This document shows, piece by piece, positions 3,791 to 63,135 of a stretch of 64,000 nucleotides of DNA (its first letter is position 1; the number at the start of each line of letters is the position of its first letter). Origin of the DNA: Eledone cirrhosa. Its lineage: Eukaryota. The position numbers were made by a program, and so were the translations under genes. Under the pieces are notes generated by a model. That model did not search any database. It was given only the letters and a program-made list of their open reading frames with translations, and was not told the DNA's origin. Location: the NCBI GenBank assembly GCA_964016885.1, contig OZ024763.1:17546001-17610000 (forward strand). Reading direction: 5' to 3'.

Positions 3791-4310
3791 TACGATATTA
3801 ATAAATGGAAACTATATTTATAAAACCATATTTATTTCATTATACATATTTCAAGGATACCAAATTAAAATATAGTATGCCTTCATCAGACAAAATACAA
3901 TATATAAACAGTTTTATAAATAATTTTGACGTACCTTATTAAATGCAACCATTATTTTTGGAAGCTGTCTGGATAGTGAAATGTTTATATTATTTTATTA
4001 GTTATAGTGTTAAGCACAATTTGAAATATAAACATTTCACTATCCAGACAGCTTCCAAAAATAATGGTTGCATTTAATAGGGTACGTCAAAATTATTTAT
4101 AAAACTGTTATATATTGTATTTTGTCTGATGAAGGCATACCATATTTTAATTTGGTATCCCTGAAATATGTATAATGAAATAAATATGGTTTTATAAATA
4201 TAGTTTCCATTTGTTAATATCGTATATCTACTCCAAAAACTTGTTGAGTGCTTTTATATCAGTTATAAAATATTTACTTGTTGTATCCCAACAATTTTAA
4301 ATAGAACTTT
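3791..4310. mobile_element. Fold-back Penelope-type pseudo-LTR remnant: ~200-bp inverted arms (3791-3991 / 4025-4224) plus extension
   Basis: Near-perfect inverted repeat with a hammerhead motif in each arm. The left arm abuts (TA)n and the right arm continues TACTCC..GAGTGCT. Confidence 0.8.
4118..4182 (+). ncRNA. Minimal type I hammerhead ribozyme motif (mirror copy on - strand in the left arm)
   Basis: tattttgt CTGATGA aggcatacca..tggtatccct GAAA tatgta TA atgaaata; stems I and II pair. Confidence 0.75.
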
Positions 4311-4692
4311 TGCATATATATATATACATACACACATATATATATATATATATATAGAGAGAGAGAGAGAGAGAGAGAGAGAGAGAGAGAGAGAGAGAGA
4401 GAGATGCTTTGTATGGCTTTTGGAGGAAGGAGTGACCAGCAGTACGTTGTTCGGTATTATTATGAAAAGGTGTAGCAGAGAATCCCACGTGAACTAACAG
4501 CTTGGGAGGAAACTGCTTACCTCGAAGATTCATTCGCCATCGTTCTTGTCAACGCTCCGTTTACTTGGTATTTGTTGGTCTACAGTTAGATGAATGGCGC
4601 TCAAAGGGTTCATGTTTATTGGCAAGAAGTTTTTTGAATAATAAAAGACGGGTTAAAGCGACCTACAATGTATCCGTGTATATATATATATA

Positions 4693-4830
4693 TAGGCAAA
4701 AGTATGACCCCGACGGCAGAGCTCAAGCCGTCGGGGTCATACTTTTTCCTATTTCCCACTCTACTACCCTAAGTATTGAGTACTCTGGTGCGTTATGGTC
4801 CATCTGGTTCCTTACCACATTTCCTTTGTT
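4693..4830. mobile_element. Miniature fold-back insertion in (TA)n: ~25-bp stem hairpin plus extension
   Basis: taggcaaaagtatgaccccgacggc-agagctcaa-gccgtcggggtcatactttttccta, followed by ACTCT..attGAGTACT. Confidence 0.6.
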
Positions 4831-5012
4831 ATATATATATATATGTGTGTATGTATGTATGCATATATATATATGTGTGTGTGTGTATGTATGTATGTAT
4901 GTATATATATATATATATATATATATATATGTGTGTGTGTGTGTGTATATACATATATTTTTATGTGTATATTTATATATGTGTATATCTATATATGTGT
5001 ATATGTGTTTGT

Positions 5013-5338
5013 ATCATCATTTCATTTTTACGTCCGCTTTTCCCTGCTTGCAAGGGTGGGACGGGAACTGATTCTGGCCTAATTTCTACAGCTGGATGCC
5101 CTTCCTAACACCAACCTCATTTACAGTGAGTGCTGGGTGATTTTTATTCCATGTCCACTTTGCAGTGGAATGATAGGGACCGCAGTCCCTATCATCTCAT
5201 TTCTACAGCTGCGTAAACTGGAGCAATGTGAAATAAAGTGTCTTGCTCAAGGAAACAACACATCACCCGGTCTGAGAATTGAACTAACAACCTTTCGATT
5301 GCAAGGCCAATGCTCTAACCACTAAGCCATGTGCCTCC
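5013..5338 (-). mobile_element. SINE family A copy
   Basis: Same head, CORE and tail as 734-1110, with an internal deletion. Confidence 0.85.
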
Positions 5339-6006
5339 ATTATATACTTTATATACATTATATACATATATATATGTATATGTATATATGTGTGTGTGTG
5401 TGTGAATGTAACGAAGATAATACGTCAGCAATGACGTGTTCATCAGAATGTCGTTATGCAGACATACAGGCAGATATTATAAGGGCTCAACGGAGATCGA
5501 TAACCGAAAATTGAAAAATACAAGCTGCAGTTAATATCTTTAGACCGCAAGGAATATATAAATGCAAGTTGTAAGTTAATTGGAGTAGAAATGTGGAATT
5601 GTATACACTTTGCAAAAATGAGGACACACATAGACAACAGCAGTTTTATATATATATATATGTGTGTGTGTGTGTGTGTGTGTGTGTGTGTGTGTGTGTG
5701 TGTGTGTGTGTGTGTGTGTGTGTGTGTGTGTATATATGTGTGTGTGTGTATATATATATATGTGTATATATATATATATGTGTGTATATATATATATGTG
5801 TGTATATATATATATATATGTATATATATATATGTGTGTGTGTGTATATATATATATATATATATGTGGATATATATATATATATGTGTATATATATATA
5901 TGTATATATATATATATATATATGTATATATATAAATATATATATATGTATATATATAAATATATATATATATATGTGTATATATATATGTATATATATA
6001 TATATA

Positions 6007-6711
6007 TCATCATCATCATCATCATCACCGTTTTACGTCCGTTCTTCCACGCTAGCATGGGTTAGACGGGTTGTCCTGTTGTGGGCAGTGTCTGGTCGGC
6101 TGACCATGCCTTGCTCATACAGGAACTGATTTGGCTTGATTTCTACAGCTGGATGCCCTTCCTAACACCAACCTCATTTACAGTGAGTGCTGGGTGCTTT
6201 TTCTGTGGCGCCTACACGTCCACTTTACAGTGTGGGCTGGGTGCTTTTTTGCCGTGGCACCTCCACGACCACCTTGCGGTGGGGGGAGTGGGGGCATATT
6301 GTTTATATGCTTCAGCATGTACCCATGGGAGGTCGGGTACCCTGTATTACTGCGTGACGCCAGAAGTCACGGCCGTGTGTCATTGTCTTTGAGAGGTGTA
6401 GTTGGGTAAGGTCGGCTTTTATCACCTCATCCCAAGTCATCTTGGGTCTCCCCACTCCGCGGTTTCCATCAACTTCTAGTGCTCTGCACCTTTTTATGCA
6501 GCTGTCATCCTTCATACGCATCACATGTCCATACCAGCGTAACCGCCTCTCCTGCACGCAGCATTTGATTCCTCTTATGCTCAGTCTCTCTCTCAATTCC
6601 TTTATGCTTTGTCGTTCACGTATATTACTGTTACACATCCATCGGAGCATGCAGGCTTCGTTTCTCTCTAATCTATGTAAGTCTTCCACCTTCAGCGCCC
6701 AGGTCTCACTA
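6007..6711 (-). mobile_element. RTE-clade LINE 3' fragment with 3' UTR and (ATG)n tail
   Basis: Minus frame [46 protein letters not shown], homologous to the C-terminus of ORF 19809-21938. Confidence 0.9.
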
Positions 6712-61140: not shown

Positions 61141-61600
61141 TGTATATGTGTGTGTCTGTGTTTGTGTCACATTAACAACACTATATATATATATATATAT
61201 ATATATATGTGTGTGTATAACATTAGCAACACTATATATATATATATATGTGTGTGTGTGTGTGTATATATGTTTGTATAATATTAACAATGCTATATAT
61301 ATATATATATATATGTGTGTGTGTGTGTATAACATTTGCAACACTATATATGTGTGTGTATGTATATATATATATATATATATGTATGAGTATATAAAAT
61401 ACACCCACACATATATATATGTAGTATTGATGTTGATATATACACATATATACATATATATATACACATATATATATATATATATATATGTATGAGTATA
61501 TAAAATACACCCACACATATATATATGTAGTATTGATGTTGATATATACACATATATACATATATATATACACATATATATATATATATATATATATATA

Positions 61601-61808
61601 TACGTAGGTCCCGGGTTGAGTCGGGGATAACCACAGTAAGTAAGGTACTCAATACATGGCAGAGTAAAATTTTTTTATTTTATAGAAGGAGCTTCTACAG
61701 GACTAGTACTGTTTCATTCAGATGAAATCTTCAGGAAGCTTCCTGAAGATTTCATCTGAATGAAACAGTACTAGTCCTGTAGAAGCTCCTTCTATAAAAT
61801 AAAAAAAT
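61601..61808. mobile_element. Fold-back pseudo-LTR element: spacerless 140-bp palindrome (61669-61808) plus extension
   Basis: Centre ggaag|cttcc; hammerhead on each strand. The left extension reads TACTCT gccatgtatt GAGTAC on the - strand; the right arm ends in (TA)n. Confidence 0.85.
61738..61786 (+). ncRNA. Hammerhead ribozyme motif
   Basis: gcttc CTGAAGA t ttc atct gaa t GAAA cag tactagtc ctg TA gaagc. Confidence 0.8.
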
Positions 61809-62324
61809 ATATATATAGTGTTATACATACACGCACGCACACACACACACACACACATATATATATATATATATATATATATATATATATATATATATAC
61901 GTATCATTATTTTTTCATTGTACATTATTGATCTGTTCCTCAGACAGACTGATTTTTTTTTATGTCTTTTTGTATGGGGGGGGGGGGGATTTATATATGT
62001 ATGTGTGTGTGTATGTATATATGTGTGTGTGTGTGTGTGTGGATGTGTGTATGTATATATATGTGTGTGTGTGTGTGTGTATGGATGTATATATGTATGT
62101 GTGTGAGAGAAAGTGTATGTATGTCTGTGTGTATGTATGTATGTGAGCGAGAGAAAGCATATATATGTATGTCTGCGTGTATGGGTGTATATATGTATGT
62201 GTGTGTGTGTGTGTGTGAGAGAGAGAGAAAGCATATGTGTATATATATATATATATATATATATGGGTATATATATATATATATATATATATATATATAT
62301 ATATATATATATATATATATATAT

Positions 62325-62626
62325 GGAGGCACATGGCTTAGTGGTTAGAGCATTAGCCTTGCAATCGAAAGGTTGTGAGTTCAATTCTCAGACCGGGTGA
62401 TGTGTTGTTTCCTTGAGCAAGACACTTTATTTCACATTGCTCCAGTTTACTCAGCTGTAGAAATGAGATGAAGTGGACTGGGGTCCCTATCATTCCACTG
62501 CAAAAGTGGTCGTGGAGGTGCCACGGCAAAAAAGCACCCAGCACTCACTGTAAATGAGGTTGGTGTTAGGAAGGGCATCCAGCTGTAGAAATCAAGCAGG
62601 GAAAAGTGGACATAAAATGAAATGAA
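62325..62626 (+). mobile_element. SINE family A copy
   Basis: Same sequence as 37214-37537. Confidence 0.85.
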
Positions 62627-62631
62627 ATATA

Positions 62632-63135
62632 TATCAATAAAAATAACAGACCGGGTTCAGTATGAATCCGGTGATATCATCAGGTACTGGAATATAACAA
62701 AGGAATATGTAAAAAAGCATGGGTCCGAAAAATCAGAGACAGAGAGGACGACTGACCAACTAGCTGCCTTCACCTCGGCCAGTGATGGCGACTGGCCGAG
62801 GTGAAGGCAGCTAGTTGGTCAGCCGCTTTCTCTGTCTCTGGTTTCTCGGACCCATGCTTTTTTACATATTCCTTTGTTATATTCCAATACCTGATGATAT
62901 CACCGGATTCATATGGAACCCGGTCATTGAAATGATCATAGTATAATAAACCTTTCAAGGATTTACACCAGTCCAGCCTCCTGTTATTTTCATTGATAAT
63001 TAACTCCGTATTCGCACCACCAACTACACAAACGAAGATGGGTGAACTGCACTACGTTGAGTACTCTCCATAATATTACACCAACATTGACCATATGGAA
63101 TTCTATCCAGTGGTGAACCAACAAACCTAAAGAAT
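62632..63135. mobile_element. Fold-back pseudo-LTR element: ~135-bp arms around a 7-nt loop (62649-62925), outer arms 62632-62649 / 62981-62998, plus extension
   Basis: Inverted repeat with a ~55-bp deletion in the left arm; the right arm continues AACTCC..gttGAGTACT. Confidence 0.8.
62887..62944 (+). ncRNA. Minimal type I hammerhead ribozyme motif
   Basis: atac CTGATGA tatc accggattc atatg gaacccggt catt GAAA tgatca TA gtat. Confidence 0.8.

Follow-up and report, generated by a model that had tools for sequence, protein, structure and literature searches.

Two fixed ends and a pair of bulged hairpins in Hydra-clade Penelope-like insertions of Eledone cirrhosa, with a candidate route to their inverted, one-tailed shape

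How a retroelement comes to leave two inverted copies of one sequence, of which one ends directly in a (TA)n tract and the other runs on into a tail, is the question raised by a stretch of the Eledone cirrhosa genome (assembly GCA_964016885.1, contig OZ024763.1, positions 17,546,001 to 17,610,000 of the forward strand; 64,000 nt, hereafter the window). Eight such insertions (E1 to E8; Table 1) had been listed in an initial annotation as fold-back products of several, mostly unrelated families of Penelope-like elements (PLEs). Arms were located by self-BLAST, and all eight insertions were examined and found to be real: inverted arms were present in 8/8, one ending in (TA)n and the other continuing into a tail. 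Taken along its hammerhead strand, each arm runs outward, one to a short end (A) in (TA)n and one to a long end (B) after the tail. E4 and E5 are of one family (F5), which leaves seven families (F1, F2, F3, F5, F6, F7 and F8). The tail, put at 60–130 nt in the initial annotation, exists but measures 66–170 nt at the family level; bordering by (TA)n, claimed for all eight, holds in general but not at E6, whose left flank is a GT repeat and whose tail is a 21-nt stub of the 170-nt family tail. The longest spacer (E5, 2,648 bp) does hold the open reading frame (ORF) for a reverse transcriptase (RT) with a GIY-YIG domain that had been assigned to it, in 5'-truncated form.

Comparison of these sequences makes it probable that insertions of Hydra-clade PLEs have two fixed 3' ends, each beside a hairpin that the RT likely binds to start copying. 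We give even chances to a wider proposal: that the hairpin pair is clade-wide, each hairpin being taken by one RT of a dimer; that the one-tailed shape would come from programmed twin target-primed reverse transcription with telomerase-like primer pairing; that short palindromes would be paired strong-stop complementary DNAs (cDNAs); and that a leader of ~250 nt would mobilise any RNA into (TA)n, as is suggested by the ORF-less family F8.

Further loci of this genome were picked by tail patterns, which sets the share of B ends partly by design; a few segmental duplicates (L161–L167) are among them. Out of 500 arms in the seven families, 263 stopped at B, 212 at A and 25 between, and a TA run lay within 22 nt of 419/475 A or B ends, compared with 5–11% in background. 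An inverted partner was present within 1.5 kb in 122/210 tail-anchored loci; 113 of the 122 partners stopped at A and nine carried a tail, several of the nine being read-through tandems. The initial annotation had proposed a routine inverted copy of the pseudo-long terminal repeat (pseudo-LTR) with a tail at one end, and many short non-coding palindromes distinct from terminal inverted repeat (TIR) transposons, to be checked by flank composition and arm asymmetry; TA-rich flanks and tailless partners bear out both proposals. Targeting of (TA)n stands as a preference and not as an exclusive trait: it is strong but not unique to these families, since a TA border on one side or both was also seen at 3/4 copies of a 280-bp repeat and at an RTE-type long interspersed nuclear element (LINE). 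Copies of several PLE families are crowded into shared TA tracts, often tail to tail (L241, L246, L248, L408). For F5, 9,984 tail ends and, in an AT-only flank, 9,440 short ends were counted, about equal numbers, the ~1:1 ratio being drawn from genome pattern counts and sampled loci. Arms of the same insertion diverged less than arms of different insertions (F1, 0.9% vs 4.6%; F5, 0.9% vs 4.5%). The order in full-length copies was recurrent 5' point, hammerhead, end A, hairpin A, end B, hairpin B, start codon and ORF.

Ends A and B each lie 2–6 nt upstream of a conserved bulged hairpin, which was found after A in 7/7 families and after B in 6/7. The fold consists of a 4-bp lower stem of near-constant sequence, a 3'-side bulge of 2 nt and an upper stem, always paired but different in each family; loops range from 3 to about 55 nt, with pairing and one-sided bulge retained. 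The seven tails have no overall sequence in common and all start with hairpin A, 2–6 nt past A. Hairpin A was scored in 176/210 loci, at 0.1–0.3% of window positions and in 0/30 loci of a further family, F9 (19,653 pattern matches in the genome; L251), whose protein we take, judged by motifs, to be a Neptune-type PLE. F9 belongs to another clade and reaches a like shape with a different signal. Hairpin B was seen at a like distance after B in 7/8 of the read-through copies first seen, and its outermost pair is G-C in place of the A-U of hairpin A, both strands having changed. Hairpin B was then predicted in F1, F6 and F7 and searched for by its 5' strand only: F1 gave 102 matches, with the 3' strand found in 30/30 loci fetched, and F6 gave 9/12 loci. 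The register of the hairpin rests on covariation, because the energy minimum mostly gives another register. Rfam scans of the E5 tail region (only weak unrelated matches) and of five metagenome loci (one Hammerhead_1 match below the gathering score) returned no family for the twin hairpins. A sequence-only leader model matched other Hydra leaders and, in the window, only a tandem repeat near 54.7–55.0 kb. Elsewhere (L254; contig C1, about 14,235,000–14,242,400), a 58-bp satellite array has formed from the F2 tail start, hairpin A included.

The hairpins recur in distant relatives, for which 76 Hydra-type loci from marine metagenomes, 30–41% identical to the F5 protein, were collected. A hairpin descriptor matched upstream of the ORF in 37/50 loci, compared with 4/50 on the reverse strand. 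Among 44 long leaders, two hairpins were found in 28, one in eight and none in eight; the pair lies between the hammerhead and the start codon, with a spacing of 55–79 nt in 26/28 two-hairpin leaders. With sequence-only anchors, upper-stem pairs 1–3 were paired in 76, 58 and 57 of 81 rows, against shuffle means of 60, 33 and 33, and 0/5000 shuffles reached the observed pairing at any of the three; these shuffles ignore relatedness, and some of the 81 rows overlap. TA-like bases stood before hairpins in 47/62 vs 12 (composition shuffles: mean 33, maximum 49). TA junctions were read by eye right before hairpin A (L287, L305, L306, L323, L331, L335) and between the hairpins (L297, L298, L300, L310, L311, L329). 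In one metagenome element, hairpin B (L290:437–465) equals hairpin A of E5 over the whole 15-nt upper stem and loop, despite a protein only 37% identical to that of E5.

The inner ends of short palindromes also recur. They fell within 2 nt of a peak in 21/52 cases for F5, 52/114 for F2, 19/64 for F7 and 11/54 for F3, and the hot spot was seen by eye in the first 100 genome matches of F5 (36) and F7 (38). An apparent F6 hot spot at −152 was an artefact of a mutated reference and was discarded. A G preceded the inner end where the element has C or T in 8/13 (F5) and 11/17 (F2) cases, and an extra G was present in 7/8 listed joints into 18880 among contigs of a public run (X1). Such a G is expected if an RT copies the RNA cap. 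We infer that 18880 is the F5 transcript start. Junctions varied between copies in position and linker letters, and a leader intron, looked for in the junction lists, found no support there. Inner ends were not enriched at the hammerhead cut (5/291 vs 4.0 expected).

Assignment of the families to the Hydra clade was based on motifs that match the clade definition in PMC8557442 (section 11). These motifs (CxCx5C linker, RWK-like, DKT, CxxC/CxH around E and N, no CCHH) were read in the F5, F3 and F7 ORFs, and the N-terminal ones in F1 and F6. The endonuclease is C-terminal and hammerheads are present, which sets the families apart from Naiad and Chlamys. The C-terminus of the window ORF matched Pfam GIY-YIG at E 0.003, below the cut-off, and a model of this domain had the I-TevI fold (Z 9.3, root-mean-square deviation 2.3, 89 residues), followed by T4 EndoII and UvrC. 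The PLE ORF gave no match to Pfam RVT_1, and sequence searches of the PDB found no solved relative. An intact relative in L250 forms a unit of 3,709 bp; its full ORF (808 codons between stops) is 91% identical to that of E5, and the model of this ORF was matched best in the PDB by TERT (3du5, E 8.9e-9), other RTs scoring close behind.

Tails read through into a Hydra ORF at 27/30 F1 loci and 9/12 F6 loci, and also in F3 and F5; F2 and F7 were joined to one via their 3' untranslated region (UTR), in F7 by L391 and six loci with the same ORF end and 3' UTR inside F7 arms. A first F7 link (L146/L257) was dropped because a TA run lies between arm and ORF. The check for links to PLE ORFs that had been suggested at the outset thus succeeded for six of the seven families, F8 being the exception, and the PLE identity itself is borne out by the RT/GIY-YIG ORF, Hydra motifs, pseudo-LTR and hammerhead. 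RTs of the six ORF-bearing families are 40–61% identical and cluster at 100/99 against 24 database proteins, in a tree that holds own-genome proteins, unnamed database proteins and one Neptune-type row. By sequence they are one local Hydra-clade radiation, and the description of the families as mostly unrelated falls. Tandem pseudo-LTR units were present in L250, L260 and L259. A further Hydra family of this genome has its own hairpin (L404:5720–5780), with an ORF that begins ~25 nt after it.

F8, the family of E8, reads through into a unit of 1.9–2.1 kb (L259, L243, L410–L439). No ORF match was found within 1.5 kb downstream of hairpin B in 30/30 loci, nor in whole 1.9–2.1 kb units. Hammerhead and both hairpins are kept (113 read-through copies), and F8 is filed by these cis signals as a non-autonomous relative. 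Genome counts, which are matches to one short pattern per family and not copy numbers, were 1,404 for F1, 47,250 for F2 (tandem arrays included), 3,287 for F3, 9,984 for F5, 254 for F6, 1,685 for F7 and 1,747 for F8.

Hammerheads were searched for over the 64 kb with a type I descriptor and compared with block shuffles. Eight matches were obtained (shuffle mean 0.09), all within these families: two each in E1, E5 and E7, one in E8 and one in a solo F7-family arm at 14812. Together with degenerate copies in E3 and E6, these give the six recognisable cores, two of them degenerate, noted by the initial annotation; E4 has the 3' half of the core only and E2 no hammerhead. At the family level a full core is predicted for F1, F3, F5, F6, F7 and F8, and the 3' half only for F2. 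A whole-window Rfam scan showed no hammerhead among the best 150 of 453 matches, which were microRNA-like and lay on simple repeats and hairpins. The role of the hammerhead in insertion shape looks incidental, because the most abundant family (F2) lacks the 5' core half and the cut site is not enriched for inner ends. In the short arms of E8 (62632–62786) and E6 (44740–44800) a deletion removes the 3' part of the hammerhead, possibly through RT jumps across the long stem II.

The following route would account for these features. Two RT-endonuclease molecules, likely a dimer, would sit on hairpins A and B of one RNA, and their GIY-YIG domains would nick both strands of a (TA)n tract. Each nick would pair with the short TA-like patch 5' of its hairpin and prime one cDNA; the cDNA from B would take in the A-to-B stretch, which becomes the tail, and the cDNA from A would lack it. 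The two cDNAs, lying on opposite strands, would join their far ends by microhomology into a head-to-head, one-tailed insertion. When primed at the 5' leader hairpins, both would likely run off the capped RNA end after 60–260 nt, giving short palindromes; longer arms would require a downstream pseudo-LTR copy or a template jump, and for long arms and tandems it would suffice if copying jumped to the 3' pseudo-LTR on reaching the RNA 5' end, or if the RNA were multimeric. The hammerhead is probably dispensable for insertion. A Poseidon PLE is described as nicking and extending both strands in vitro, with two internal start sites that bound the tail (PMC11167929).

Several observations weigh against this route or the hairpins on which it depends. 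The origin of long arms and tandems is its least constrained part, because most inserted copies lack a downstream hairpin B, and the Poseidon element is described as initiating without homology to the target (PMC11167929). Within-family hairpin counts are inflated, several search anchors overlapping the hairpin; hairpin B of F2 was seen at a single locus, from a pattern requiring hairpin B, and that of F7 is unseen, no read-through copy having been found by pattern. The hairpins alone fold weakly (z −2.4, −1.2, +0.1 and −1.9), and the energy minimum yields the bulged register in 1/4. In the metagenome leaders, loose sequence-only anchors also matched the reverse strand in 13/44, no hairpin was present in 8/44, and the pairing shuffles have the limits given above. 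Same-insertion arm similarity is weak in F2, F6 and F8 and may stem from conversion after insertion. No clear inner hot spot is seen in F1, F8 or F9, and microhomology to the partner arm accounts for some of the extra-G cases.

The main rival to twin priming is a single cDNA with one start, coupled to a DNA-level signal: the inverted arm would arise by fold-back, template switching or repair, and the motifs would be DNA sites of the endonuclease. Near-identical arms fit such self-copying and the hairpin motif is partly self-complementary; in PMC8557442 the tail is put down to resolution by the endonuclease, and in PMC11167929 the D. virilis endonuclease is cited as depending on the tail for recognition. 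The longer arm, however, can be either one (the A arm of E5 is 2.9 kb, and L023 joins a bare tail to a 171-nt A arm), which is hard to obtain by self-copying; the variable loop with kept pairing and one-sided bulge is expected of a folded single strand; and the absence of hairpin B from most inserted copies also tells against this rival. We consider this rival unlikely.

Less credit still is due to the view that short palindromes are self-propagating non-autonomous elements, retrozyme- or SINE-like (SINE, short interspersed nuclear element), spread from few masters. It draws on the 47,250 matches of F2 with almost no read-through parent, on F8 as a real ORF-less family and on the proposal that non-LTR retrozymes derive from PLEs (bioRxiv 10.64898/2026.07.22.740005). 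Junction position and linker letters nevertheless differ from copy to copy, hairpin B, apparently required for B ends, is missing from the palindromes, and retrozymes are tandem, not head to head. Twin priming might also be correct with inner hot spots that are splice acceptors or RT pause sites instead of capped starts, a variant to which we attach little weight. In its favour, the D. virilis Penelope intron ends at hammerhead helix I (PMC4209133), helix I is also where the F6 and F7 hot spots are placed, and an AG precedes the hot spots of F2, F6 and F7. Against it, the junction lists have no common upstream exon beyond 1–3 nt, no acceptor AG is present at the hot spots of F5 and F3, which are >100 nt upstream of the hammerhead, and the sequence context resembles an initiator in F2 and, ~30 nt upstream, a TATA box in F7, as would fit a start site. 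TIR DNA transposons that target TA, of the kind known as miniature inverted-repeat transposable elements, would explain inverted ends, TA flanks and high copy number, but are very improbable and largely refuted by the asymmetric ends (113/122 pairs), the variable interiors and inner junctions and the continuity of 6/7 families with a Hydra RT ORF. The 100% identical arms of E5 and E7 might suggest that the palindromes are fold-back artefacts created in sequencing or assembly, but this can practically be dismissed: divergence reaches about 9% between other arms, thousands of loci have their ends at the fixed positions, contigs of a public run (possibly of the source sample) contain these joints too, and A and B ends are also found in other organisms.

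Table 1. Features of the window by position; arm coordinates and identities are from self-BLAST.
Feature	Position	Strand	Remarks
E1, family F1	3791..4313	+	Sense arm and inverted short arm, the latter with its A end in TA at 3791; arms about 3791-4230, 92.7% identity
E1 type I hammerhead	4126..4174	+	Mirror copy 3889-3841 on −
E1 tail	4226-4313	+	84–88 nt; B end in TA
E1 hairpin A	4230..4249	+	Lower stem 4230-4233/4246-4249, 2-nt 3' bulge, 3-bp upper stem
E2, family F2	4693..4830	+	60-bp fold-back, then 78-nt tail; arms 4692-4752
E2 hairpin A	4758..4781	+	
E3, family F3	7722..8047	−	92-nt tail 7722-7813 on − strand arm; short arm on +; arms 7814-7857/8001-8044
E3 hairpin A	7770..7809	−	
E3 degenerate hammerhead	about 7947-7992	+	In short arm; read from sequence
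Solo F7-family arm with hammerhead	14809..14864	+	Between TA runs; absent from initial annotation
E4, family F5	15205..15384	−	86-nt tail 15205-15290; both arms very short; arms 15286-15390
E4 hairpin A	15262-15286	−	
E5 long-end arm	15839..16163	−	Tail 15839-15924; pseudo-LTR up to 16163; arms 15925-16163/18812-19050, 100% identity
E5 hairpin A	15896..15920	−	
E5 hammerheads	16025-15971 and 18950-19004	− and +	Descriptor
E5 ORF, 5'-truncated, Hydra-clade	16164..17711	+	RT palm and thumb, CxCx5C linker, C-terminal GIY-YIG endonuclease
E5 3' UTR and pseudo-LTR	17712..19050	+	Short end A at 19050 in TA
Recurrent inner (5') end of F5 arms	18880..18880	+	Putative transcript start
Solo F7 tail	22389..22448	−	100% identical to E7 tail; between TA runs; absent from initial annotation
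Ninth fold-back of same shape, F9	25371-25755		TA-bordered, 54–57 nt tail; missed by initial annotation
E6, family F6	44560..44800	−	Tail stub 44560-44580; + strand short arm with internal deletion; arms 44581-44621/44761-44801
E6 degenerate hammerhead	about 44739-44642	−	Read from sequence
E7, family F7	61603..61808	−	66-nt tail 61603-61668 and perfect 140-bp palindrome 61669-61808
E7 hairpin A	61647..61665	−	
E7 hammerheads, one per arm	61743-61781 and 61734-61696	+ and −	Descriptor
E8, family F8 (ORF-less)	62632..63133	+	Arms 62632-62998, ~55 bp missing from left arm; 135-nt tail 62999-63133
E8 hammerhead	62891-62940	+	Descriptor
E8 hairpin A	63003..63062	+	42-nt loop

Other repeats share the window. 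RTE-type LINE ORFs with RVT_1 and a PHD-like finger, bordered by TA, lie at 19812–22070 (−), 22979–25165 (+) and 6326–6709. Non-LTR retrotransposon 3' fragments with zf-RVT were found at 46926–48222, 48791–49590 and 39264–40106, the first two forming an 802-bp direct repeat (94.6%). A dispersed SINE-like repeat of ~280 bp (5013–5337, 8100–8412, 12257–12650, 37214–37494, 62325–62597) often adjoins TA runs and PLE copies. Tandem arrays occupy 10214–11553, 29937–31012 and 51275–55100; two are of one 72-bp satellite in opposite orientation and one is a separate long array. An inverted pair at 32206–32338 and 33626–33751 (76% identity, 1.3 kb apart) is possibly an old fold-back element.

The insertion shape alone is a known PLE pattern and not new (PMC8557442, PMC11167929): an inverted 5'-truncated copy, a tail at one end and, for Hydra, (TA)n are published in PMC8557442. 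The new part is the hairpin pair, the inner stop points and the run-off reading; no description of twin hairpins or of run-off was found in the literature searched, which included PMC8557442, PMC11167929, PMC4209133, PMC2377424, PMC8969392 and the 2026 retrozyme preprint. PMC8557442 names as an open question how PLEs come by their inverted repeats and tails; the prior answer is partial, obtained in vitro with one Poseidon element (PMC11167929). A motif beside both start sites offers a direct handle on the inverted, one-tailed shape, and the hairpin pair is a simple annotation marker for Hydra 5' ends and ORF-less relatives. If the proposal is true, it would supply an RNA-recognition rule for the RTs closest to telomerase, define the minimal cis signal that a non-autonomous PLE needs, and account for the short palindromes, tens of thousands of them in this genome, as by-products of PLE copying.

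Compared with known systems, the families agree with the Hydra clade as described in PMC8557442 in the motifs of linker and RT (CxCx5C, RWx, DKT, CxxC/CxH around E and N, no CCHH), in a canonical hammerhead near the 3' end, in (TA)n preference and in the inverted 5' copy recorded for Penelope-13_HM. Tails are given there as 30–40 bp for PLEs generally, compared with 66–170 nt here, and Hydra units as <3 kb, compared with at least 3.7 kb here (F5, 3,709 bp); its account of Hydra mentions no twin hairpins, inner hot spot or ORF-less Hydra family. The Poseidon element PAc of Anolis carolinensis, as reported in PMC11167929, likewise has two internal RT starts that bound the tail and an AT-rich target. 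Nicking and extension of both target strands, a predicted dimer and dispensable hammerhead cleavage were reported for PAc, whereas the corresponding steps here are drawn from sequence; the lack of enrichment of inner ends at the hammerhead cut is in line with that report. In PAc, copying starts within the ORF, in an AC-rich stem loop and with no homology to the target (PMC11167929), whereas the starts proposed here precede the ORF, at short TA-like patches that each lie 5' to a separate copy of one hairpin. Penelope of D. virilis resembles the present elements, in the description of PMC2377424, by a partial tandem flanked by variable inverted repeats, a promoter in the pseudo-LTR and a 34 bp repeat at the ORF start and 3' end; it differs in clade and in having a leader intron, of which no sign was seen here.

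Non-LTR retrozymes (bioRxiv 10.64898/2026.07.22.740005) are described as non-coding, hammerhead-bearing derivatives of PLE pseudo-LTRs, but are tandem repeats, whereas the eight window elements are head-to-head inverted pairs with variable junctions. Likeness to them is limited to L263, with its F2 unit of about 230 bp, and to the F8 units. At L263:1380–1760 an F2 tail and hairpin B are followed by about 150 nt and a second F2 pseudo-LTR with tail, a roughly 230-bp, retrozyme-like tandem without a full hammerhead. In LTR elements, strong-stop DNA is a short cDNA that runs off the RNA 5' end, as proposed here for the short palindromes. In LINE-1 twin priming, two primers on opposite target strands produce an inversion, again as here; the second LINE-1 primer anneals upstream at positions that vary, with no overlap between the two parts, whereas the present elements have two fixed starts and arms that are duplicates of one sequence.

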